Positions 3,729-22,305 of a DNA stretch of 46,478 nucleotides are shown here, piece by piece. Under the pieces are notes generated by a model that ran no database searches, was not told where the DNA came from, and saw nothing but the letters and a program-made list of their open reading frames with translations. This stretch comes from a virus, in the IMG/VR virus record IMGVR_UViG_3300050161_000017, positions 1 to 46,478 of that record. The stretch is one strand, 5' to 3'. Every line of letters starts with the position of its first letter. Positions within the stretch are counted from its first letter, which is position 1. Made by a program: the position numbers and the translations under genes.

Positions 3729-3925
3729 TGAAAGAACTTTTTATTGGCATGATTGCCGTTCTTGCCTTTTTTGCTGTAGTAAACACAGCAGGAATCGCGC
3801 TGAAGTCTTATAGATGCGGACAGCGTTGGGGCGACTACGAGCATCGTTATTCAGTTTTCGGCGGCTGTCAAGTCAAGGAAGACGATAAGTGGACACCTGA
3901 AGGTCGCGTCCTCGCTGTCCAGTAA
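3728..3925 (+). CDS. Small membrane protein (65 aa, N-terminal TM helix)
   Basis: TAATG overlap with the upstream gene. N-terminus is LFIGMIAVLAFFAVVNTAGIAL. Confidence 0.65.
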   Translation: MKELFIGMIAVLAFFAVVNTAGIALKSYRCGQRWGDYEHRYSVFGGCQVKEDDKWTPEGRVLAVQ

Positions 3926-4519
3926 TAACCCACGGTGCCTATCATCGCGGGTAGGTTAAATGTTGCGAACTCAAAGCAGCCGTGATTATTAATCAAGAGC
4001 CAGATGGGAACAGGTTCGGCAGGGTCAGGATTGACGCTACTAAATAGAGGGCTGTAAATGTGTAACTGCTAAGTGGTACTAAGACCACAACCGTAACCTT
4101 CACATTGACTTGCAAGTGCAGTAATCAAAACAGGGTGAGCTTGTGTTGGCGCACTTATACCTTAGAACCTGTAAGATTTTCCTCAGAAGATGGTGCTGAC
4201 GCGGCCCAGATCACTATAGATATTAGTTCTAAAATGTGATTTCGATCTCCTGTGTTCCTGTTTCCTTCTGGCTTTTGCTTAAGTTCCTCTTGGTCAGCAG
4301 CCTGATACTTTGAAGTGCCGGTAAGCTCGATGAATTAACCAGCATCTACGCAAACCTGAAAAAAGAGTTAACAACTCAATTGATGAGCATAGACTCAAAA
4401 ATAAGTAATGAATCGCCAGTCTATAAACGGATGATTACTAGCAGAGTCAAAGTACGGTGGTGCAACTCCACTCCAAGAGACCACTAATTAACACGCTTTT
4501 TGTCCTGTGGAGTAAGATA

Positions 4520-8613: not shown

Positions 8614-9432
8614 ATGAAGATCACGGTAGGTTGTGACCCCGAGCTGTTCGTTACGCAGGATGGCAAGTTCCGTTCAGCTCATGGATTGATCCCCGGCACT
8701 AAGGAGAAACCTTTCAAGGTCCAGAACGGTGCTGTCCAAGTTGACGGAATGGCTCTTGAATACAATATTGACCCAGTTGATAACGCCGATGATTTTGTGT
8801 TGTACAATCAGATGGTTATGGCTCAGATGAAGGAGATGGTTCCTGACCACGAGTTTGCAATCGTCCCTTCGTGCAGGTTTAATGGCAACCACTTCCGGGC
8901 ACAGCCCGATGAGGCGAAGGAACTTGGGTGTACGCCCGATTACAACGCTTATAGCATGAGGGCTAATCCTCGTCCTGACAACAAGACAACGATGCGGACT
9001 GCTTCAGGGCACATCCACATCGGCGGCTTCCCCTCTGATAACCCTGATGGCGATGAGCACATGACTCGTTGTGCTACGCTCATCAAGCAGCTCGATTGCT
9101 ACCTCGGCCTGACCTCTCTTCTGTTCGATAAGGACACCCTACGTCGCCAGATGTACGGTGCTGCCGGTGCTTTCCGGCCCAAGCCTTACGGAGTTGAGTA
9201 TCGTGTCCTGTCGAACGCATGGTTGCTAAATGAGAACCGGATGAGGTTTGTGTTTGACCAGACGGTTCGGGCAGTCAACGACCTATTGAAAGGCATTCGT
9301 CCGGTTGACAAGATCGGTGAACAGCGTGTTATCAACACCATCAATAGAAGTGATGCTTTCTCGGCAGGGCGTTTTCTGATCTCTGCCATCCCTGACGGCG
9401 AGCAGATTGTTGCTCAAGCTAGAGCACTTTAA
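8614..9432 (+). CDS. Carboxylate-amine ligase; my best family guess is phage COOH-NH2 ligase type 2, glutamine synthetase-like (272 aa)
   Basis: N-terminal VGCDPELFV, then DGMALEYN and SGHIHIGG. The family was recognised from memory and not searched. Confidence 0.65.
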   Translation: MKITVGCDPELFVTQDGKFRSAHGLIPGTKEKPFKVQNGAVQVDGMALEYNIDPVDNADDFVLYNQMVMAQMKEMVPDHEFAIVPSCRFNGNHFRAQPDEAKELGCTPDYNAYSMRANPRPDNKTTMRTASGHIHIGGFPSDNPDGDEHMTRCATLIKQLDCYLGLTSLLFDKDTLRRQMYGAAGAFRPKPYGVEYRVLSNAWLLNENRMRFVFDQTVRAVNDLLKGIRPVDKIGEQRVINTINRSDAFSAGRFLISAIPDGEQIVAQARAL

Positions 9433-9445
9433 TAGGAGTGAGTTT

Positions 9446-10102
9446 ATGTCTCTCAAAGGTGAAGCCTACGAAACGGCGGAGGAAGTAAAGTTTCGTCTGG
9501 AAAACACTGTTGTCCTATATGATGGTGCTCCTGTTCTTATCAGTCGAGTCAATGTCCCCGAAGAAGTAGATCGTAAGGAAATCGCTCGCGTTTTCTTCTA
9601 CGAACTTCCTTATGGACGGGGTGCGGGCAACGGTAAGGAGGTTCGCAAGTACCTTTCATCGAAGAAGTTTGACTTGGCCCCTTTCAAGATGGGTTATTTC
9701 AATCACAATGGCGGGGCTACTTTCGCATCTCGCATCCCTAACCGGCAGAACAAGCAAGGCATTAACGTCAACACCTGCTCTCTAACCAACATCAGGGGTA
9801 AGCGTTCGGAGATCATTGACTTCGACATGATGGTTGCTTCGCAAGGATTCGTGGACATGGTGGCGGGAAAGTTCCCAACCTTCGCTGAAGCAGGGGAGAT
9901 GCTGGGCGACAAGGAGACCTCCTCTGTTGCTGTAAGTCGCTCGTTTGCGTTCGTGATCAACCACGATCTTGAAGCCTTGCTGCTTATTCATAAAGGTGTT
10001 AAGTGTGGCATAGCTCTGAGGGGTCAAAAAGCCCTCAATCTTCCCCCTAAATTCCACTTCCTTCGGGAAGAAGCTGAAGAATGTCGTATCCCACTGGCTT
10101 AA
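9446..10102 (+). CDS. Hypothetical protein (218 aa) between the two ligases
   Basis: ATG at 9446 after GGAG, inside tracked ORF 9407..10102. No recognised motif. Confidence 0.7.
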   Translation: MSLKGEAYETAEEVKFRLENTVVLYDGAPVLISRVNVPEEVDRKEIARVFFYELPYGRGAGNGKEVRKYLSSKKFDLAPFKMGYFNHNGGATFASRIPNRQNKQGINVNTCSLTNIRGKRSEIIDFDMMVASQGFVDMVAGKFPTFAEAGEMLGDKETSSVAVSRSFAFVINHDLEALLLIHKGVKCGIALRGQKALNLPPKFHFLREEAEECRIPLA

Positions 10103-10116
10103 AGAGAGACACTACA

Positions 10117-11268
10117 ATGACTAGGCTACAAGACTTCTTAAACTCCCCTATTCCGGGCTTGAGTCGTATGATGAAAGCACCGAAGCAGGGTGATCTGTTC
10201 GGCATCGAGCTAGAGTGCGAGGGCCGTGACGTAGATTGGGACGGTTCGGACGCCAATCTCGTGAAGGATTGGGCACCACATGCTGACGGCTCTTTGCGAA
10301 ATAACCACGGTTCTTCTTGTGAGTGGGTGTTTAACGGCCCTGCGTCTTATAAGACCTCACTTCTTCGTGTTAAGAAGTTGTTTGAGTATTTTGAGAAGCG
10401 CAAGACAAAACTTGTCTGCTCTAACAGGACTTCTACACACGTCCACTTCAACATGGGTGACAAGAATGCCTATCAGTTGGTGAATATGTTCATTCTGTTC
10501 ACTATTTTGGAAGACCTTCTTGATCGCTATTGTGGAGAAGATCGTCGTGGGAACCTGTTCTGTCTCTCTTCTCGTCACGCAGAAGAGCAAGTATCGTGGA
10601 TCAGCGATGCTGTGTTTAACAGGCAGAACTTCGGAGCATTTCGGGAAGATTTCCGATATTGTTCACTGAACCTTGCTTCGATTAACAAGTTTGGGACGGT
10701 TGAGTTCCGAGCTATGCGTGGTCTGGACACTGAGGAAGCCGTCGTTACTTGGCTGAGTATCATCAAAGAGTTCTGCGAGTATGCTTGCTATACGATGAAG
10801 AACCCCGTTGACTTGATCGAAGCAATCTCTGTCAAGACTCCTCTTGGTTTTGTCAAGGAGGTGTTCTCGAAGGACAACTCCCTGCTTCTCACTAAGGGTA
10901 TTGACGAGCATGACATCAATGCTTCCATTTATGAAGGTCTCCGGCTCGTTCAGATGATGTGCTATCGCATCGGAACCGAGTTCGATCAGGTGCGTCTTAA
11001 GGGCCGTGATTTTTGGGCATCATTCGGGGGTGATCCAGAACCGGAGTTGGACGTCGCTCCAGAACTTCTGGCAGGACTCGGCAACCCAGCCGATGGTAGG
11101 CTTCGCCGTAGGCCTGCAGGACCTCGAATCGCTAATCTTATCGATAACCCGTTAGTTGTGCTTGAGATTAGAGAGAATCAAGCACGGGCAGAGGCAGTTA
11201 TGGCTCGTCGTTATGCAGACCGCATTGCTGCTCGCTTTGAACCTATTCCTGTTGTGGAGGATTTCTGA
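10117..11268 (+). CDS. Amidoligase (Amidoligase_2-like, GS/GCS fold), about 383 aa; an alternative start is at 10081
   Basis: FGIELECEG, STHVHFN and GTVEFRAMRG motifs. The stop overlaps the next ATG (TGATG). Confidence 0.75.
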   Translation: MTRLQDFLNSPIPGLSRMMKAPKQGDLFGIELECEGRDVDWDGSDANLVKDWAPHADGSLRNNHGSSCEWVFNGPASYKTSLLRVKKLFEYFEKRKTKLVCSNRTSTHVHFNMGDKNAYQLVNMFILFTILEDLLDRYCGEDRRGNLFCLSSRHAEEQVSWISDAVFNRQNFGAFREDFRYCSLNLASINKFGTVEFRAMRGLDTEEAVVTWLSIIKEFCEYACYTMKNPVDLIEAISVKTPLGFVKEVFSKDNSLLLTKGIDEHDINASIYEGLRLVQMMCYRIGTEFDQVRLKGRDFWASFGGDPEPELDVAPELLAGLGNPADGRLRRRPAGPRIANLIDNPLVVLEIRENQARAEAVMARRYADRIAARFEPIPVVEDF

Positions 11269-12035
11269 TGACTAAATTTCGTATCTACCCATACAAGCAA
11301 GGCAGCAAGAGTGCTAAGGCTCTTGCAGAAGCTCTTGAAGGAAAGGTTCTAAAGCATGTCGGGAGTAAGTACAAGCCCAGACTTAGTGACGTCGTTGTTA
11401 ATTGGGGTTCTGCTGCTCCTCCTGTTTTGGCCCCCGCCACCACCCTCAACAAGGATGTCGCAATAGCTCAGTGCAAGCTTAAAACTTTCAAGGCTCTTGG
11501 AGCTGCCGGGGTGCGCATTCCTGACTGCTGGGAGGGCCGTGCAGCAGCGGAGAACGCCCCGGCAGAGAGTTACCCTCTAATGTGCCGAACGGTGCTTAGA
11601 GGGCATTCTGGGGCGGGTATTGTGATCGCCAACAACGCTGATGAACTCGTGGAAGCACCTCTTTACACCAAGTACGTCAAGAAGAAGGATGAGTATCGTG
11701 TCCACGTCCTCAAAGACAAAGCCTTTTTCATTCAGCGTAAGGCCCGAAAGCTTGACAACGACAATCCCGACTGGTTGGTACGAAATCTGGCCGGAGGATT
11801 TGTTTTTGTCGAAGCCCCAGCCGACGAAGTCCCGGCTGATGTCATTAATCAGGCAGTGGCCACAGTTGCTGCGCTGGCTATCGACTTCGGAGGAGTGGAC
11901 GTTATCTGGAACGAAAGAGAAGGTAAAGCCTATGTCCTTGAATGCAACACGGCCTGCGGTCTCGAAGACCGAACCGCAGACAAGTATCAGCAAGCGTTTG
12001 TTGATTTTGTCGCGGATCAGGGACGCCAAGACTAG
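11268..12035 (+). CDS. ATP-grasp ligase (RimK-like), 255 aa
   Basis: EYRVHVLKDKAFFIQRK and the C-terminal YVLECNTACGLE, typical of small ATP-grasp peptide ligases. Confidence 0.75.
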   Translation: MTKFRIYPYKQGSKSAKALAEALEGKVLKHVGSKYKPRLSDVVVNWGSAAPPVLAPATTLNKDVAIAQCKLKTFKALGAAGVRIPDCWEGRAAAENAPAESYPLMCRTVLRGHSGAGIVIANNADELVEAPLYTKYVKKKDEYRVHVLKDKAFFIQRKARKLDNDNPDWLVRNLAGGFVFVEAPADEVPADVINQAVATVAALAIDFGGVDVIWNEREGKAYVLECNTACGLEDRTADKYQQAFVDFVADQGRQD

Positions 12036-12225
12036 GCGTTACCTTGAAATAGATGACACCTGGAATAAAGGGTGCATTTTCTACGATGAAAAGCAGGCTC
12101 AGAGGGAATATTCTTGGCTGAAAGCCCACAGCGATGTTAGAGAATACATCCTCGTAGCTCAAGTAGTTAAACAAAAACCAAAGATCAGTTGTTTTGATGA
12201 TTTAGACGACACCATACCATTCTAA
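12007..12225 (+). CDS. Possible small protein ending in the SSB-like tail FDDLDDTIPF; start unresolved (TTG at 11998, 12001 or 12007, all overlapping the ATP-grasp gene)
   Basis: The frame is open from 11641. There is no ATG, GTG or TTG in frame between 12036 and 12225. The C-terminus mimics the SSB tip. Confidence 0.35.
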   Translation: MSRIRDAKTRRYLEIDDTWNKGCIFYDEKQAQREYSWLKAHSDVREYILVAQVVKQKPKISCFDDLDDTIPF

Positions 12226-12237
12226 GAGGAAGTTATC

Positions 12238-12459
12238 ATGTACGCAGTTTCGTTTAGAATACCTTATGAAGTTCTTGGGCAGAGAGCTTACGTCAATGGT
12301 TCTTTGATTAATACGACCCCTCTCAAGAAGGGTCAGTTGATTGCTGTGATTAACAAATCTCAGTCTCCTGTTGTTAAAGGATTGACGGCAGAGGTTATTG
12401 AAAGTAATAAGACTACGCGCAGTGCTTCTGAGTTCAGATGGGGCTTGTTTGATGAGTGA
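12238..12459 (+). CDS. Hypothetical protein (73 aa)
   Basis: ATG after agaggaag. Confidence 0.6.
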   Translation: MYAVSFRIPYEVLGQRAYVNGSLINTTPLKKGQLIAVINKSQSPVVKGLTAEVIESNKTTRSASEFRWGLFDE

Positions 12460-12646
12460 CCCTCATAGTGCATTAGCCGAGAAACTGTACGGCGAGATAA
12501 CCCCGACTGGAAGGATTAAAGCCAAGACAATCAACTACATGCGGTTGTACGACAGTGGGGAAATCAAAGTCGGCCAAGTGGCGGGCCAGTATCCTGCTAC
12601 AGATTTGTCAAGCCTTGAATTAAGAGTCCTTGCATTATTTGCTTGA
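12452..12646 (+). CDS. 64-aa ORF resembling the family A DNA polymerase fingers segment (motif B / O-helix)
   Basis: ATGAGTGA overlap with the upstream gene. Its SDPHSALAEKLYGEITPTGRIKAKTINYMRLYDSGEIKVGQV aligns by eye with GDPHQYNADLAGVTRVRAKTLLYAIQYGAQAGKVAQI in this phage's DNA polymerase. Confidence 0.5.
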   Translation: MSDPHSALAEKLYGEITPTGRIKAKTINYMRLYDSGEIKVGQVAGQYPATDLSSLELRVLALFA

Positions 12647-12670
12647 CAAATCTGAAAAACCCTGTATAAT
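12643..12670 (+). promoter_or_regulatory. Strong sigma70-type promoter P5 (TTGACA, 16-nt spacer, TATAAT), a near-copy of P4
   Basis: TTGACA at 12643-12648 and TATAAT at 12665-12670. It carries the same conserved leader ATCCTAAAGGAGCGAGGGTGAAAAG. Confidence 0.7.
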
Positions 12671-12927: not shown

Positions 12928-13224
12928 ATGCGGTGCGATATCTGTGATAAGGCACTCTCTGACACAGAGGTTGTCTTCAATAAAGAATTAGTCAATCCCG
13001 ACGGTACTGGCGGATACGAACCTTGTGCAACTTGCCTAGAAATAGCAATGGATGCTGCATTCAGTCAAGGCTTCAATCGTCCTGATGATGAGATTGCTAC
13101 TGAAGTCGGGGACGAGTTCGGTGACGGCATCGTAGAGACTCTTGATACTGATGTTTCCCTGTCTGATTATCAGGAGGGTGACGCCAGCGACATGACAAGA
13201 TACGACACTGATGACTATGATTAA
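12928..13224 (+). CDS. Zinc-ribbon protein with a highly acidic C-terminal half (98 aa)
   Basis: CDICD...CATC at the N-terminus, followed by a D/E-rich tail. Confidence 0.65.
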   Translation: MRCDICDKALSDTEVVFNKELVNPDGTGGYEPCATCLEIAMDAAFSQGFNRPDDEIATEVGDEFGDGIVETLDTDVSLSDYQEGDASDMTRYDTDDYD

Positions 13225-13227
13225 CGC

Positions 13228-13256
13228 TTGACAAAAGTTATAATCTGATGTATTAT
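13228..13256 (+). promoter_or_regulatory. Sigma70-type promoter P6 (TTGACA, 17-nt spacer, TATTAT)
   Basis: GCTTGACAAAAG context. The leader ACTCCTAAGGAG resembles those of P4 and P5. Confidence 0.6.
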
Positions 13257-13275: not shown

Positions 13276-13683
13276 ATGAAGTTTGAAGATGTTGTTTACG
13301 CTAGCTATCCTACAGGTAGTCGCTACATTTGTAATCCCCCACCTCTTGATACCGATAACGACACTGTCTTTCTGGTGAACGGTTACTACGACTGGAAGCA
13401 GATGCTTCTGGATGAAGGTTGGGGGGATTGCGGAGAAGAGTACGAGAAAGGTGAAGATTTTCACGCCTATCGGAAAGGTGAGGAGAACTACATCGTCACT
13501 GAAGATGACGATTTCTATCAATCTTATGTTAAGGCTACCGAAGGTGCCAAGGCGCTCAACCTTCTCAACAAAGAAGATCGCATCAAACTCTTCATTGCTG
13601 TCAATGGTTCAGGCCGTCCGCTCAAGACCACACAGGATCGCGGAGTGTTTGAAATCTGGGATGGGAGGAATATTCCTTTTTGA
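13276..13683 (+). CDS. Hypothetical protein (135 aa); possible minimal pol-beta-type nucleotidyltransferase
   Basis: ATG after AAGGAG. TGSRYICNPPPLDTDNDTVFLV matches the loose GS-x9-DxD-hydrophobic pattern. The function call is tentative. Confidence 0.6.
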   Translation: MKFEDVVYASYPTGSRYICNPPPLDTDNDTVFLVNGYYDWKQMLLDEGWGDCGEEYEKGEDFHAYRKGEENYIVTEDDDFYQSYVKATEGAKALNLLNKEDRIKLFIAVNGSGRPLKTTQDRGVFEIWDGRNIPF

Positions 13684-15323
13684 GTAAATTCCTACGGCAC
13701 GAAGGATGCCCTTCCTGCGGATCATCCGATGGTTTAGCCATCTACGAAGACAACAAACATTGCTTTGTTTGTAATTATCATGAGGCGTCAGCCGACTACG
13801 AGGGAGATTTCGACATAGCAGATAAACACGAGGTCCGCCATGCAGCAGACCGCAACCTAACACCAGTACCGCAACAAGATCAGATCGCAATCAAGGATCG
13901 TGGCATCTCTGCTAACGCTGTGAACAAGTACAAAGTCACTGTAAACACTAACCCTGAAAGTCCTGTCAACCATGTTTATCCTTATTTCGACGAGAACGGA
14001 GCGCATGTTGCCAACAAGGTGCGTCGTAAGGGTGAGAAAGCTTTTTTCTGGGAAGGTGATGTGGGAGCAGGCCGTCTCTTTGGGCAGCAATTGTTCCCTG
14101 CGAACGGAAAAGCCATTACGGTGGTCGAAGGAGAGTGCGATGCTCTTGCGGGTTTCCAACTTACTGGTAGCAAATATCCGTGCGTGTCTGTCAAGTCCTC
14201 TTCTGAGGCCAAGAAAAACTGTGTGGATAATTTCGAGTATCTGAATAGCTTTGAAAAGATCGTAGTCTGTATGGATAACGATGAACCCGGACAGAAGGCA
14301 GCTAATCAAATTGCCCAGCTCTTTGCTCCGGGCAAGGTCCACATCCTCAAACTTAACCTTTGTAAAGACCCTAATGACTATCTTGTTAAGGGTTTGGAGA
14401 AGGAGTATGTCAACGAGTGGTTTCGTGCCCCTGCTTACATGCCTGATGGTCTTCGTCTTGGTTCTGACATGGGGCTGCTGGACGAGATTGTAAACTACAA
14501 GGAGCCGGAGTGCATCCCTTATCCTTGGGCTGGTCTTAACCAGAAGTTGTACGGTATCCGCCTTTCTGAGTTGACGTTGTTCACTGCTGATACTGGCATC
14601 GGTAAGACTACGTTTATGAAGGAAATTGAGTATGCCCTCTTGCAGAATAAAGACCTTCAAGAGAGGGGGTATGGCGTAGGTTTCCTCCATCTGGAAGAAC
14701 CTAAGCGAGAGACTCTTCTGGGGATGCTCTCTATCCACCACAACAAGCCGTATCATCTTCCTGATACGCCTAAGAGTGAGGAAGACATCCGTAAGGCTTA
14801 CAAGGAGGTTCTCGATAACAAGAGAGTAGTAGTCTATGACCATTTCGGCAGTAACGAGATTGATACCATCTTGGCTAAGATTCGTCATATGGCTGCTCTG
14901 GGATGTCGTTATATTGTGCTTGACCACTTGTCTATTATTGTATCAGATCAGTCAGGCGACGAGCGGAAGCAGCTAGATGAGATCAGTACCAAGCTCAAGT
15001 CATTGACGATGAACCTTCAGATTGCTGTCGTAGCTGTCATCCACATCAACAGACAAGGGCAGGTCCGTGGCTCTGCTGGTCCTGAACAGGTTTCTAATAA
15101 CGTCATCCGCCTGACCCGTGACAAAAAGGAAGTCGATGAATGGCGTCGTAACGTAACACAAATGGATGTCGAAAAGTGCCGTCTCTCCGGTAGGACTGGT
15201 CCGGCTTGCTGGATTTTCTACGACAACGACACGGGCCGTCTTGTTGAGTTGACACCTGACCTCGCTAAGAAGTTCCAAGAAGGTGGTTCGCTTGCAGGTG
15301 ATGAGTTTGAAGCATATAACTAA
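13680..15323 (+). CDS. Bifunctional DNA primase-helicase (T7 gp4-like), 547 aa, TTG start
   Basis: Zn finger CPSCGS...CFVC; TOPRIM VVEGECDALA and MDNDEPGQ; DnaB-type Walker A TADTGIGKTT; Walker B YIVLDHLS. Confidence 0.9.
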   Translation: MSKFLRHEGCPSCGSSDGLAIYEDNKHCFVCNYHEASADYEGDFDIADKHEVRHAADRNLTPVPQQDQIAIKDRGISANAVNKYKVTVNTNPESPVNHVYPYFDENGAHVANKVRRKGEKAFFWEGDVGAGRLFGQQLFPANGKAITVVEGECDALAGFQLTGSKYPCVSVKSSSEAKKNCVDNFEYLNSFEKIVVCMDNDEPGQKAANQIAQLFAPGKVHILKLNLCKDPNDYLVKGLEKEYVNEWFRAPAYMPDGLRLGSDMGLLDEIVNYKEPECIPYPWAGLNQKLYGIRLSELTLFTADTGIGKTTFMKEIEYALLQNKDLQERGYGVGFLHLEEPKRETLLGMLSIHHNKPYHLPDTPKSEEDIRKAYKEVLDNKRVVVYDHFGSNEIDTILAKIRHMAALGCRYIVLDHLSIIVSDQSGDERKQLDEISTKLKSLTMNLQIAVVAVIHINRQGQVRGSAGPEQVSNNVIRLTRDKKEVDEWRRNVTQMDVEKCRLSGRTGPACWIFYDNDTGRLVELTPDLAKKFQEGGSLAGDEFEAYN

Positions 15324-15515: not shown

Positions 15516-17318
15516 ATTTATCTTGATTGGGAAACGCAGGCCCAAGACGTTTACGCAGTGGACATCGAAACCGATGGTCTTGATGCAAAGACAATCTGGG
15601 TAATGTGTTGGGAAAATATCAAAACCAAAGAGACGGGGACGTGTACCACTTATGCCGAGATTAGACGATTTTTCGATGAGACTGCTGGTTCTGTTTATGT
15701 CGGCCACAATATCATCCGCTTTGATGCTCCCGTTCTTAACCGATTGGCAGGCACCAAGCTCTCTGTAAGCCAGATCATTGACACCCTTATCCTTACCACT
15801 CTCTACAGCCCGTCGATTAAAGACGGCCACTCTCTCGACGCATGGGGTACTCGGATTGGCCTTCCAAAAGGCGTATTCAATGACTGGACGCACCTCTCTG
15901 ACGAGATGATTGTGTACTGCCAACAAGATGTTTCCATCACCGCCTCACTCTTTAGGAAGATCACCAAAGTCTTGACGAAGATTGGTTTCAGCGAGAAGAC
16001 TTGTTACATCCAACACTACATCACAGCTATTGCAAGCAGACAGCAGAATAGTGGGTTCAAGTTCGATGGCCCTCGTGCTATCCTATTTTATCAACAACTT
16101 CGCAATCGTGAAGAAGAACTACAGGAGTTGATCCGTCATGCGTTTCCCGACGAGCGACGACTTGTGCGTGAACGGAATATACACACCAAGTCTGGACAAG
16201 TTACTGCACTGTATGAACGAGATCGACAGACTTACGACATCGAGATCGTGCCCAATAACAGAGGGACATATAGAGCGTTTGAGAACGTCCCTTTCAATAT
16301 TGGAAGCTCAAAGCAGAGAGTTGAAAAACTTACTGCGCTCGGATGGGTGGCTGATGAAAAGACTCCGAAAGGCTTCCCTAAACCAACAGAAAAGTCTCTG
16401 ATTAGGTTTGCAGAAGAGAGTGGTATCGAAGAAGTAGCTTTGATTACTAAGTGGATGTCTGTCAACGGACGGGCAAACATGATTAACAATTGGTTGGAGA
16501 ACTGGGATGAAGCGACCGGCTGTATTCACGGTAAGTTATTTGTTGCGGACACTCTTCGTTTCCGGCATCAAGCACCTAACACAGCTAACATCCCAGCCGT
16601 TAGAGTTGATAAAAGAGGACTTGTCCTTCTGGGAGAAGAGGGATATTATACTTATGAAGCTAGAGATTTGTGGACCGCAAGGCCGGGTCGTGTACTCATC
16701 GGAACTGATGCGGCAGGGCTTGAACTTAGAATGCTTGCCCACTATCTCAACCGCCCTGAGTTCACAGAACAGGTAGTCAATGGTGATCCTCACCAGTACA
16801 ATGCGGACTTGGCTGGTGTTACTAGGGTAAGGGCCAAGACCTTACTCTATGCCATTCAATACGGTGCTCAAGCCGGTAAGGTTGCCCAGATCATTGAAGG
16901 AACTCGTGAAGAGGGTGCGATGATGAGAGAGCAGTTCCTAGCTAGACTGGGTATCAAAGGAGTCATGGAAGATGCAATGCGTGAGCAAGAATCGGGCAGG
17001 GTCTGGTTGGTGGACGGGGCTGGAGTGGTTTGCCCCTCTCCGCACGCCGCACTCAACTACAAGCTTCAAGGTGGTGGTGCCCGAGTCATGGGCTTAGCTT
17101 GGATCTTGTTAGAGAAAGAGATTAGACGAAAAGGTCTCGATAGTTTCTCCGTAGGCAACATCCATGATGAAATGCAGTACGACGTAGCTCCGGGAGATGC
17201 TGAAGAGCATGGCAGGATAGCAGTTCAAGCTATTCGAGATGCCGGAGAAGAACTGAATCTGAATGTACCGCTAGATGGTACTTCTAAATCTGGCCTTACA
17301 TGGAGTGAAACTCATTGA
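15516..17318 (+). CDS. Family A DNA polymerase with 3'-5' exonuclease domain; the start is either ATT 15516 (proposed) or GTG 15558 (tracked)
   Basis: Exo I VDIETDGL, Exo II GHNIIRFD, Exo III YCQQDV. Motif A GTDAAGLELRMLAH, motif B RAKTLLYAIQYG, motif C NIHDEMQYD. Confidence 0.9.
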   Translation: MYLDWETQAQDVYAVDIETDGLDAKTIWVMCWENIKTKETGTCTTYAEIRRFFDETAGSVYVGHNIIRFDAPVLNRLAGTKLSVSQIIDTLILTTLYSPSIKDGHSLDAWGTRIGLPKGVFNDWTHLSDEMIVYCQQDVSITASLFRKITKVLTKIGFSEKTCYIQHYITAIASRQQNSGFKFDGPRAILFYQQLRNREEELQELIRHAFPDERRLVRERNIHTKSGQVTALYERDRQTYDIEIVPNNRGTYRAFENVPFNIGSSKQRVEKLTALGWVADEKTPKGFPKPTEKSLIRFAEESGIEEVALITKWMSVNGRANMINNWLENWDEATGCIHGKLFVADTLRFRHQAPNTANIPAVRVDKRGLVLLGEEGYYTYEARDLWTARPGRVLIGTDAAGLELRMLAHYLNRPEFTEQVVNGDPHQYNADLAGVTRVRAKTLLYAIQYGAQAGKVAQIIEGTREEGAMMREQFLARLGIKGVMEDAMREQESGRVWLVDGAGVVCPSPHAALNYKLQGGGARVMGLAWILLEKEIRRKGLDSFSVGNIHDEMQYDVAPGDAEEHGRIAVQAIRDAGEELNLNVPLDGTSKSGLTWSETH

Positions 17319-17320
17319 AG

Positions 17321-17707
17321 ATGTTCCGAGAAGACAGAGATCACAGAAACAAACGTACAAGAGATTGGCACCGCAATAATCCTAAGCAAAGCTATTTGTT
17401 AGCTGCTAAGAAAAGAGCAGCAACTGCTGGCCTACCTTTTGACTTAACTGAAGAGGACATTATTTTCCCCGAAGTGTGTCCTGCCTTAGGCATCCCTGTT
17501 GCTTTAGAACAAATAGATGGACCTAGGCGACGAACAGATAATACACCTTCGCTAGACAGGATAATCCCTGAATTAGGTTATGTTAAAGGGAACGTAGCGA
17601 TGATCTCTTGGAGAGCTAACCGGCTTAAAAGCGATGCGAAATTGTTTGAACTTGAAAAACTCCTAGCTTATATGAAAGACCGTAAAATGAAAGCGTGGGT
17701 ATTGTAA
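17321..17707 (+). CDS. HNH endonuclease (128 aa)
   Basis: SLDRIIPELGYVKGNVAMISWRANRLK, a typical HNH/HNN core. Confidence 0.75.
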   Translation: MFREDRDHRNKRTRDWHRNNPKQSYLLAAKKRAATAGLPFDLTEEDIIFPEVCPALGIPVALEQIDGPRRRTDNTPSLDRIIPELGYVKGNVAMISWRANRLKSDAKLFELEKLLAYMKDRKMKAWVL

Positions 17708-18545: not shown

Positions 18546-19052
18546 ATGCAAATTCGTGGTAAAGCATACTGGACCAAGCTGGATAAGCCTGTCGCCAACT
18601 ACAACAAGACTAAGAAGATTCTGAAAGACGGGCAGCCCGACGGTTGGGGAGATGAATGGTCTGTCGAGGTCGCAAACCTCACTGCTGACACGAAGAAGGC
18701 TCTCAAGAAAGAGGGTCTGCTCGGTCTAGTCAAGAATAAGCTTGATGAACGTGAAGACTTCATTACGTTCCGTCTATCTACTGAGAAGCGCGACGGCAGT
18801 GCCAACGATGCTCCAAAGGTAGTAGATGAGCAGGAGAAGGAGTGGGGTTGGGCTGAGCGTGGTAAGATCGGTAACGGCTCTGACATCGCAGTCAAATTCA
18901 ATGTCTGGAAAAACCCCGGTAACTCTAAAGCTTCGGCTTTCATCGTAGCTGTCAAGGTTCTTGAACACATCCCTTACGAGACAAAGGAAAGTGACACCGA
19001 CTATGAAGACCCCGATAACTGGGGTAATCTGGACGATGAAATTCCTTTCTGA
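18546..19052 (+). CDS. Single-stranded DNA-binding protein (T7 gp2.5-like), 168 aa
   Basis: N-terminal GKAYWTKLDKP resembles the gp2.5 N-terminus. Acidic C-terminal tail ends NLDDEIPF. ATG after AAAGGAA. Confidence 0.65.
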   Translation: MQIRGKAYWTKLDKPVANYNKTKKILKDGQPDGWGDEWSVEVANLTADTKKALKKEGLLGLVKNKLDEREDFITFRLSTEKRDGSANDAPKVVDEQEKEWGWAERGKIGNGSDIAVKFNVWKNPGNSKASAFIVAVKVLEHIPYETKESDTDYEDPDNWGNLDDEIPF

Positions 19053-19659: not shown

Positions 19660-19896
19660 ATGGCCAGTTACGTTATGATTGCTAAAGTTGACCAGATTGT
19701 GACCCGAGAAGTTCAACTTCTAGTTGTTGCTGGTTCAGAAGAGGAGGCTGAAGATAAGGCTCGCCAAGCCCTTCAAATGTTTCCTAAGCCTGTTACTGTC
19801 GAAGGTGTTCAAAAGATGGTGGTGAATAAGGCGAACTACTGGATACCAAAGAGTGTAGACTTCACTAGTATTAAAGAGGAGAAGGCAGTTGCTTAA
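19660..19896 (+). CDS. Hypothetical protein (78 aa)
   Basis: ATG 5 nt after TAAGGAGG. Confidence 0.65.
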   Translation: MASYVMIAKVDQIVTREVQLLVVAGSEEEAEDKARQALQMFPKPVTVEGVQKMVVNKANYWIPKSVDFTSIKEEKAVA

Positions 19897-20731
19897 AACA
19901 ATTGATACACTCGTTGCCGATATTTACTCTATGTTCGATGGAGAACATTTTCCACACGATCCGCAAGAGTTTGTAAAGTTTGGTAAGAATGTAGAAGAAC
20001 TATTCCATGATCGTTTCAACTCGGTTCGTGGTAAGCCCACTCTTCGTATGTCTAACATAGGACGACCCGATCGGCAGCTTTGGTATGACATCAACGGAGA
20101 AGGTGAGAAAGAGAAGCTCCTCCCAGCAACCTTCATTAAGTTCGCTTATGGTGACATAATCGAGCAAATGATTTTGTTGTACGCTAAAATGGCAGGCCAC
20201 ACGGTAGAGCAGGAGCAAGCAGAAGTAGAGGTCGATGGCATTAAAGGCCATATCGACGCAGTGATTGATGGGGTTCTAGTCGATGTCAAAAGCGCCAGTA
20301 CATTTTCCTTCGCAAAGTTTGAGAGCGGCGACCTCTTCCTCCCCGGCAACGACCCTTTCGGATATGTTGCTCAACTTGCCGGATACATTGAAGCGGTTAA
20401 TCCCGGCGGACGTGGTGGCTTTCTTGCTGTCGATAAAACCCTTGGAAAAATCTGTTTCTGTGAAATCCCCCGAGACATACTACAGCAGTACGCCGTCCGC
20501 GAACGTATCGCACACATCAAGGCCGTCATAGCAAGTCCTGATCTACCCCCTCGTTGTTATCCTGATGTGCCTGACGGCAAGAGCGGTAACATGAAGCTCG
20601 GGACAGGTTGTAGCTACTGTCCCCATAAATTCAATTGTTGGGATCAGTTGAAAACATATATTTACAGCACAGGCCCCCGATACCTGACTAGGGTGGTTAA
20701 AGAACCCCGAGTAGAAAGTTGGGACCATTGA
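19889..20731 (+). CDS. PD-(D/E)XK nuclease with a Cas4/RecB-like Cys cluster (280 aa), TTG start
   Basis: GHIDAV...LVDVKS core and the C-terminal CSYCPHKFNC (CX2CX5C). Confidence 0.7.
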   Translation: MLKTIDTLVADIYSMFDGEHFPHDPQEFVKFGKNVEELFHDRFNSVRGKPTLRMSNIGRPDRQLWYDINGEGEKEKLLPATFIKFAYGDIIEQMILLYAKMAGHTVEQEQAEVEVDGIKGHIDAVIDGVLVDVKSASTFSFAKFESGDLFLPGNDPFGYVAQLAGYIEAVNPGGRGGFLAVDKTLGKICFCEIPRDILQQYAVRERIAHIKAVIASPDLPPRCYPDVPDGKSGNMKLGTGCSYCPHKFNCWDQLKTYIYSTGPRYLTRVVKEPRVESWDH

Positions 20732-21457: not shown

Positions 21458-21596
21458 TCTATACAAAGAATTGGCTTATGATATTTTCGCCAATACTGCT
21501 ACTGATCTAGCTCAGGCTGAGAATATTGTAGACTGGTTGAAGAATGAAAATCTCCTTGACCACGACTCTTTGAAAGAATATTATGAATATGAATAA
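21447..21596 (+). CDS. Possible 49-aa acidic protein
   Basis: ATG at 21447; overlaps both neighbours; below the ORF-track cutoff. Confidence 0.3.
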   Translation: MVDNLYKELAYDIFANTATDLAQAENIVDWLKNENLLDHDSLKEYYEYE

Positions 21597-22305
21597 TAAA
21601 ATTCTAGTCTTGGATATCGAGACTAAGCCAGCACAGGCGTACATTTGGCGGGCCTACGGCGAACAGAATATTGGTGTTGAACAAATCATTGATGCAGGAG
21701 GCACCATCTGTGTCGGACTGAAGTGGTTAGGAGATCGAGAGACTTCCCTATATTCAGAGTGGGAACATGGTAAGCATGAGATGCTGAGACATGTCCACGC
21801 CGCTATGAGTGAGGCCGAGGCAGTCATCACTTACAATGGAGATAAATTCGATCTTCCGAAACTGCAAGGTGAGTTCCTCCTAGCAGGGTTGGGTCCGACC
21901 CCACCTGTAACAAGTATTGATGTCGTCAAAGCCGTAAGGAAGTTCGGCTTCTTTGTCAATCGTCTTGCATTCATTGGTCCTTTCCTTGGCGTTGGTGCGA
22001 AGATCAAGCATGAAGGCTTCGATCTGTGGGTTAAGGTTATGGACGGCAATCAACCAGCTAGAAATAGAATGTCCCGCTACTGTAAGCAGGATGTCAAGCT
22101 GCTTGAGAAGCTCTATATGAAGGTTCGTCCTTTCATCAAGGATCACCCCCACATGGGTAACGTCAGAGGCCATGAGTGTGGTGCTTGTGGTAGTAAGCAA
22201 GTCCAGAGCCGAGGCTACAGAAGGACTAAGGCATTCCGCATTCAGCGGCTACAGTGCCAGACGTGCGGATCATGGGCCGCTGGTAAGCGTGAGAAAGTGG
22301 GCTAA
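21583..22305 (+). CDS. DnaQ/RNase H-fold 3'-5' exonuclease with a C-terminal zinc ribbon (240 aa)
   Basis: LVLDIETKP, ITYNGDKFDLP and YCKQDV, followed by CGACG...CQTCG. Confidence 0.75.
   Translation: MNMNNKILVLDIETKPAQAYIWRAYGEQNIGVEQIIDAGGTICVGLKWLGDRETSLYSEWEHGKHEMLRHVHAAMSEAEAVITYNGDKFDLPKLQGEFLLAGLGPTPPVTSIDVVKAVRKFGFFVNRLAFIGPFLGVGAKIKHEGFDLWVKVMDGNQPARNRMSRYCKQDVKLLEKLYMKVRPFIKDHPHMGNVRGHECGACGSKQVQSRGYRRTKAFRIQRLQCQTCGSWAAGKREKVG

Follow-up and report, generated by a model that had tools for sequence, protein, structure and literature searches.

A putative overprinted mini-gene with an SSB-type C-terminal tip at the 3′ end of a phage ATP-grasp ligase gene

The locus and its candidate mini-gene

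The IMG/VR phage record IMGVR_UViG_3300050161_000017 was analysed over its whole length of 46,478 bp, which will be referred to as the window; it bears direct terminal repeats and is complete. At the 3′ end of its gene for a RimK/R2K-like ATP-grasp ligase, an open reading frame (ORF) in frame 1 encodes a product terminating like the tip of bacterial SSB (single-stranded DNA-binding protein). The original prediction had described this ORF as staying open from inside the ATP-grasp gene to position 12225 and as ending in ...FDDLDDTIPF. Both statements were confirmed, as frame 1 is free of stops between 11626 and its TAA (12223-12225), and the translated product terminates in KPKISCFDDLDDTIPF (...FDDLDDTIPF) directly before this TAA. 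Equally correct was that no in-frame ATG, GTG or TTG occurs past the ATP-grasp stop (TAG at 12033-12035), that is, in 12036-12222. From this it had been concluded that three TTG codons upstream of the stop are the sole candidate starts and that the ORF has no start codon of its own. These two claims did not hold, as an in-frame ATG at 11932, located 8 nucleotides (nt) 3′ of a GAAGG sequence, had been overlooked. With this ATG, the puzzle of the missing start is resolved. The proposed mini-gene comprises the following features:

11932..12225, + strand: proposed full mini-gene, 97 codons plus TAA, shifted to +1 with respect to the ATP-grasp frame
11918..11924, + strand: Shine-Dalgarno (SD)-like sequence AGAAGGT derived from the ligase Glu-Gly-Lys codons, core GAAGG at 11919-11923
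11998, 12001 and 12007, + strand: alternative TTG starts lacking an SD
11989..12171, + strand: predicted folded core, residues 20-80 (AlphaFold2)
12172..12222, + strand: predicted disordered C-terminal tail, with the SSB-type tip DDLDDTIPF at 12196-12222

The mini-gene and the ATP-grasp gene overlap by 104 nt (11932-12035), corresponding to the final 34 ligase codons. The database protein P0001 with 72 amino acids (aa) represents the version of the mini-protein begun at TTG 12007.

Codon usage was evaluated for the part of the ORF past the ligase stop. Frame 1 over 12037-12222 gave a log-likelihood of 0.196 per codon, which is within the range of in-frame sequence (0.28 ± 0.10), and none of the off-frame windows attained the score of the mini-gene. 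Relatives of the window, designated by locus labels (L), were located via their primase-helicase. Comparing the window with L006 past the ligase stop yielded 14, 11 and 33 differences at codon positions 1, 2 and 3, respectively, and for the mini-gene a pN of 0.19 with saturated synonymous sites (pS). The mini-gene frame was the only sense frame free of stops in all six loci. An antisense gene was also considered and rejected, as no antisense frame is open across all six loci.

A HMMER scan of 1.8 billion representatives detected 22 further proteins of 59-102 aa with E < 1e-3; one extra match, a protein of 4,676 aa, was judged to be spurious. Homologues are encoded at the same place in L006 (67% identity, tail DDLDDDISF), in L005 and L009 (43% identity, tails DLDDDIPF and DLDDEIPF, respectively) and in L010 (32% identity, tail LDDDVI), and L015 also encodes a homologue. 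The family shares the core pattern SR[IV].D...R..LE..D.W.....F..E..A.QE..WL..H...REY.LVA, followed by a short variable linker and D.LDD.IPF; conserved residues of the mini-protein are R35, D42, W44, A56, W62, L63, R70 and E71. Since codon usage, third-position bias, the sole stop-free frame and the homologues detected by HMMER all point in the same direction, the mini-gene can be regarded as real. On this evidence, the stretch is a genuine small gene and a member of a rare, new and so far unnamed family of phage mini-proteins.

Pfam and PHROGs contained no family matching the 72-aa form at E ≤ 0.01, and tblastn with the 63-aa part, P0016 and P0021 gave no real match among 50,697 isolate phage genomes, so far confining the family, by these searches, to metagenomes. 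A word-indexed protein search with the mini-protein returned the query itself alone, and 8 proteins were obtained when it was repeated with the family alignment. Scans of viral contigs with P0016, P0021, P0009, P0013 and P0020 yielded no loci, nor did scans of metagenome contigs with P0009 and P0025; the viral-contig scan with P0025 yielded the single locus L015. Rfam models gave nothing meaningful over 11800-12400.

Choice of the start codon

The ATG at 11932 is in frame and lies inside the Tyr-Val codons of the ligase KAYVLE motif. Its duplex with the anti-SD sequence at the 16S 3′ end was calculated at -6.4 kcal/mol, a value that matches the average for 19 confident starts and is reached in the background by about 12% of start triplets (≤ -6 kcal/mol). 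The TTG codons at 11998, 12001 and 12007 had been described as lacking an obvious ribosome binding site (RBS), and indeed their duplex energies are close to zero (0.1 to -0.2 kcal/mol). Equivalent embedded starts preceded by an SD are present in L005 (ATG, -9.7 kcal/mol), L010 (ATG, -5.7 kcal/mol) and L006 (TTG, -5.7 kcal/mol). In L005 and L010, the next canonical start is found only about 28 codons from the end, and in L005 and L006 the frame is closed 9 codons 5′ of the embedded start; in L010, too, it closes at least 9 codons 5′ of this position. No start codon is present at the position of the window's TTG codons in L005, L009 and L010.

Synonymous shuffling of the ligase codons showed that an open +1 frame with a start at this position is expected by chance with a frequency of 0.15-0.22 per genome; it was observed in all four overlapping genomes. 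The ligase genes without such a partner (the functional L009 copy, L003, L004, L012, L013 and L015) have the +1 frame closed or the start missing. The starts assigned by gene callers to P0010, P0013, P0020 and P0044 are likewise located inside the ligase gene. Over the final ~12 ligase codons, frame 1 (RLLILSRIRDAKTRR versus RLLILSRVKDEEFRR) shows stronger conservation than the ligase frame. Synonymous-codon identity of the ligase is ~0.33 over alignment columns 81-240 and climbs to 0.57-0.69 in the final ~50 columns. A second peak of synonymous identity (0.70-0.73 versus ~0.33; window, L006, L005 and L010) was noticed at ligase codons ~41-80 (11388-11507), for which recombination, RNA structure or a further embedded element are conceivable causes.

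Two loci represent natural controls for the overlap. In L009, the ATP-grasp gene and the mini-gene are separated by an inserted gene for a 133-aa HNH-type protein (3767-4168), and the mini-ORF is still preceded by a duplicated copy of the 3′ end of the ligase gene (84 nt, 4169-4252) in which both frames are intact. The mini-ORF of L009 has its own new SD, AAAGGAGA (-8.7 kcal/mol), with GTG or ATG as start. The HNH gene looks like a homing-endonuclease insertion that was obliged to preserve the overlapped leader. The functional ligase copy of this locus has a diverged C-terminus (NRSAEKYREVLQNYIDNV). In L015 the mini-gene does not overlap at all; it begins 16 nt past the ligase stop with AAGGTAAG-N5-ATG and encodes a 15-residue leader. 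A TTGACA...TATAAT sequence is located immediately 3′ of the mini-gene in this locus.

Conservation of the frame, the start and the SD is seen directly in these comparisons; the start actually in use is what we infer. Translation is likely, though by no means certain, to begin at ATG 11932 inside the ligase gene. As an alternative, the same protein might start at TTG 11998 or 12001 (75 or 74 aa) by re-initiation after termination of the ATP-grasp gene, for which no SD would be required since ribosomes end that gene 35 nt downstream. The two codons would yield MLILSR... and MILSR..., respectively, and many homologues begin in just this manner 3-9 residues before the SR motif (MLISRV, MWIISRI, MPMRFVILSRV). 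Furthermore, the TTG codons of L006 at 4800 and 4809 lie 5-14 nt ahead of its ligase stop, and the residues before the first β-strand are predicted to be disordered. However, the TTG codons have no SD (~0 kcal/mol) and, with L005, L009 and L010 lacking a start there, they are not a family-wide solution; N-terminal extensions of 15-22 residues are normal in the family (L015, P0005). We regard such re-initiation as possible rather than probable. The third codon, TTG 12007, would truncate the fold since the first β-strand is modelled at SKRLLILSRI, and the 72-aa database form P0001 probably cuts off part of this strand.

An embedded start with an RBS that is kept in relatives (L005, L006 and L010) is the hallmark of an overprinted gene, and judging by the alignments it is present here. 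Known phage examples of overprinting are lambda Rz1, which lies within Rz, and the lysis gene of MS2, whose start is in the coat gene. As in these, the proposed start and SD of the mini-gene are located inside the upstream gene, the frame is +1, and the overlapped stretch would serve both frames. In contrast to these examples, only the N-terminal ~34 codons of the mini-gene overlap, apparently encoding a disordered leader and no functional part, and a non-overlapping homologue exists in L015. The locus would represent a clean example of overprinting in which start and RBS are borrowed from codons of a conserved catalytic motif of the ligase, with L009 (insertion and duplicated remnant) and L015 (non-overlapping form) at hand for comparison.

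Fold, C-terminal tip and the phage's own SSB

The structure of the 97-aa protein was predicted with AlphaFold2 on the basis of a 22-sequence alignment. The mean predicted local distance difference test (pLDDT) score was 80, and the core (residues 20-80) reached 91-96. This core is modelled in the order β(20-29), α(32-37), β(45-50), α(53-66), β(70-79), and both ends (residues 1-19 and 81-97) are predicted as disordered, with a pLDDT of 53-58 for the tail (81-97) falling below 50 at 86-89. The model thereby places the SSB-type tip on an intrinsically disordered segment. Foldseek against the PDB returned weak generic α/β matches (best E 0.32) and against BFVD uncharacterised phage proteins only (E ≥ 5e-3); the best Z of a wide VIA-align search was 4.5, and the best score in the ESM Atlas was 0.78. 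Neither Foldseek nor VIA-align matched the three-strand, two-helix model to an SSB or its oligonucleotide/oligosaccharide-binding (OB) fold. A basic nucleic-acid-binding core was considered and rejected because family members differ in core net charge, with values between -5 and +4; with this span, a conserved nucleic-acid-binding surface is unlikely.

The family tail has the consensus D-x-L-D-D-x-I-P-F. It had been proposed to ask whether homologous phages keep the frame open with the IPF terminus, and the answer was mixed: the frame is kept open in six loci, but the terminal IPF is not universal, an exact [ILVM]-P-[FWY] ending being present in 12 of the 22 members.

The tip resembles that of a second protein of the same phage, which is encoded in the replication region. 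Up to ~25.6 kb, the window carries its early and replication genes on the + strand; beyond this point, genes are on the - strand. The neighbouring genes relevant here are:

8614-9432, + strand: COOH-NH2 ligase (Pfam/PHROGs profile searches)
9407-10102, + strand: phrog_11055 protein
10081-11268, + strand: amidoligase
11268-12035, + strand: RimK/R2K-like ATP-grasp ligase (phrog_2599, 1e-72; ATP-grasp_3 and R2K_2 weak)
13680-15323, + strand: T7-type primase-helicase
15558-17318, + strand: Pol A polymerase (phrog_17)
18546-19052, + strand: phage SSB of 168 aa, T7 gp2.5/Enc34 type (fold match)
19889-20731, + strand: Cas4-like exonuclease

The original prediction had pointed to an SSB-like protein of this phage with a similar tail, which was borne out: the 168-aa protein (18546-19052) ends in NLDDEIPF at 19029-19049. 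Sequence searches of Pfam, PHROGs and the PDB gave no family match for this protein, and only the fold search named it as an SSB. Its model matched 5odj (Enc34 SSB, E 2e-6) and 1je5 (T7 gp2.5, E 1e-4) in Foldseek with a probability of 1.0 each, and its neighbours in the ESM Atlas bear phage families that bind single-stranded DNA (ssDNA). By its modelled fold, the protein is an SSB of the T7 gp2.5/Enc34 type, and its homologues keep an LDD[DE]IPF tail. The codons of the window's two tips differ, and their match is thus kept at the protein level; recent copying of the SSB tail into the mini-gene was rejected for the same reason.

Three ORFs of the window end in IPF, all of them on the + strand in the replication region, compared to 0.14 expected (P ~4e-4). 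The third one (13276-13683) encodes a 135-aa phrog_15166 protein ending in ...GRNIPF, and its stop overlaps the start of the primase-helicase gene. Homologues of this protein end in ...IEAIPF (L009), ...READF (L005) and ...WIDMF (L015), so that the aromatic C-terminus varies. The primase-helicase of the window and its close relatives ends in ...GDEFEAYN, and that of L004 (4315-6111), a more distant relative, ends in ...KGAIPF. From these termini, it seems that within this phage group the IPF tag shifts from one replisome protein to another.

The tail of the E. coli SSB reads MDFDDDIPF. Like this bacterial SSB C-terminus (SSB-Ct, ...DDDIPF), the mini-protein has an acidic run and I-P-F at a free C-terminus that ends a disordered segment, and the hydrophobic residue at position -7 is L instead of the F of E. 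coli. Unlike in bacterial SSB, the tip is placed on a modelled 60-residue β-α-β-α-β domain that gave no OB-fold match, only a very short linker (~8-17 residues) precedes it, and there is no sign of DNA binding. A further likeness is given by the T7 replisome, in which gp2.5 (SSB) and gp4 (helicase) carry acidic tails that bind polymerase and helicase and end in ...DF, not IPF. The phage of the window likewise combines an SSB of the gp2.5/Enc34 type with a T7-like primase-helicase and Pol A, and the tail of its SSB (LDDEIPF) and that of the mini-protein represent one motif; the mini-protein itself appears to be neither an SSB nor a helicase. T7-type SSB tails have been implicated in binding of polymerase and primase-helicase (PMC5686142). 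Prophage DUF669 SSBs bear DDDIPF, and an interaction with host partners has been put forward for them (PMC13687109). They likewise combine a non-canonical fold of a mobile element with the bacterial tip, presumably engaging SSB partners, but they bind ssDNA, of which the mini-protein gives no sign.

Proposed function and alternative readings

The C-terminal tip of SSB recruits polymerase, helicase and repair enzymes. As a docking handle, it is central to genome maintenance in bacteria, and efforts are under way to target it with antibacterials. With moderate confidence, we suggest that the mini-gene encodes a 97-aa overprinted protein whose SSB-type tip docks where SSB tails dock, acting there as a competitor or adaptor, a function that we infer from the tip only. 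Ribosomes would start at ATG 11932 within the ATP-grasp 3′ end, with the SD supplied by the Glu-Gly-Lys codons of the ligase, and the first ~19 residues, predicted to be disordered, would be a by-product of the overlap. They would be followed by the compact β-α-β-α-β core and the disordered acidic tail with its free C-terminus ...DDLDDTIPF. The tip might dock into SSB-tail pockets of the phage polymerase, the primase-helicase or host SSB-interacting proteins, and the docked mini-protein would either rival SSB tails or bring its own core domain there.

The core idea of the original prediction, namely that a small protein is translated here whose SSB-type tip matches the tail of the phage's own SSB, is supported by the protein family, the signature of purifying selection and the fold of the SSB. 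Of the three readings that it had offered, a decoy for tip-binding proteins is the most economical one and is compatible with the sequence evidence. Literature searches for a phage mimic or decoy of the SSB tip found, in the library searched, no paper on a natural non-SSB protein with such a tip. If the mini-protein is such a carrier, it would be a tool at hand for probing the SSB interaction network, and it may point to a phage tactic of take-over or counter-defence.

Several points weigh against this proposal. The phage is an uncultured metagenomic record and the gene is known here from sequence alone. The tip is incomplete or internal in some members of the family (L010 ...LDDDVI, L015 ...LNDVI, P0006 ...IPFNLRS), and the core with its variable charge gives no hint of a ligand. 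Regarding the embedded start, the synonymous signal at the ligase 3′ end is not specific, as the second peak at codons ~41-80 lies outside the known overlap. Conservation of SD and ATG is partly forced by the ligase since both derive from conserved ligase residues (EGK and AYV). In addition, the TTG codons of the window and L006 at the beginning of the first β-strand match the N-termini of many homologues, and a shorter, translationally coupled product is possible.

A more far-reaching version takes the neighbouring ligases into account. The mini-protein would again be a free-standing decoy or adaptor occupying SSB-tail pockets, by which host repair, restart or defence proteins might be cut off from SSB or the phage replisome might gain a new client, and its coupling to the ligase gene would leave room for the ligase island to edit ...IPF C-termini, either its own or those of SSBs. 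By such C-terminus editing, the SSB interaction hub would be rewired in a novel manner; we consider this extended proposal tentative and rather doubtful.

A closer involvement of the ligases was suggested by the third reading, in which the acidic tail is a substrate of the RimK-like ligase. The RimK/R2K-like ligase and the other island ligases would have the mini-protein as their acceptor or as a dedicated partner, and amino acids would be added to its tail. The adjacency that this reading builds on was confirmed in six of six readable loci, with the mini-gene 3′ of the ATP-grasp gene directly in five and after the HNH insert in L009, and with an overlap in four. P0002, P0010, P0013 and P0020 begin with peptides resembling the +1-frame reading of a ligase 3′ end, and R2K ATP-grasps have been predicted to modify proteins in phage-host conflicts (PMC4431377). 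The chemistry gave no direct support. The terminus is ...IPF rather than an S6-type Glu-Glu acceptor, and a graspetide-type core of conserved Ser/Thr/Lys and Asp/Glu is not present, the conserved tail residues being solely L, D, D, I, P and F. Moreover, the ligase occurs without the mini-gene in L002-L004, L008, L012 and L013, and the adjacency may be inherited gene order since the six loci belong to syntenic relatives. A simpler explanation is provided by the presence of the same tip on the phage SSB, and we consider a ligase substrate improbable.

The second reading regarded frame 1 as an alternative C-terminal extension of the ligase, produced by a programmed +1 frameshift. Frame 1 does run on from the ligase gene, with no canonical start past the ligase stop. 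This reading is contradicted by L009, in which the HNH gene separates the ligase from a mini-ORF with its own SD and start, by L015, in which the mini-ORF is separate with its own SD and ATG, and by the ligase C-terminus, which aligns completely with homologues lacking an extension. A shift-prone motif was not seen when the overlap was read by eye, without a systematic scan. Such an extension therefore appears highly unlikely.

Just as hard to credit is an artefact, whether a frame open by chance in a spacer that is not translated or an indel of the assembly that hides a normal start. In this genome, a spacer of such length (12036-12237) is unusual, and ATG 12053 and 12086 would come into frame if one base had been lost. 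Against this, the independent assemblies L005, L006, L009 and L010 show the same frame relation with no start past the ligase stop, the third-position bias is strong and purifying selection is seen, the folded core starts 5′ of 12036, and no Rfam family was matched.

Further features were noticed in the replication region of the window. Two near-perfect sigma-70 promoters, TTGACA-16-TATAAT at 12643-12670 (12/12) and TTGACA-17-TATTAT at 13228-13256 (11/12), flank a gene for a zinc-ribbon/acidic protein (12928-13224). The product of the Pol A gene (15558-17318), which matches phrog_17, also matches the exonuclease-subunit family phrog_403 with its N-terminus, and a separate 240-aa protein (21583-22305) encoded 4 kb 3′ of Pol A shows a strong match to phrog_403 (1e-65). 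Judging from these paired matches, the phage may possess two 3′-5′ exonuclease modules. A 130-aa endonuclease VII/HNH-like protein is encoded at 17315-17707, with weak PHROG matches to Srd anti-sigma (5e-6) and a sigma-70 decoy (9e-3).

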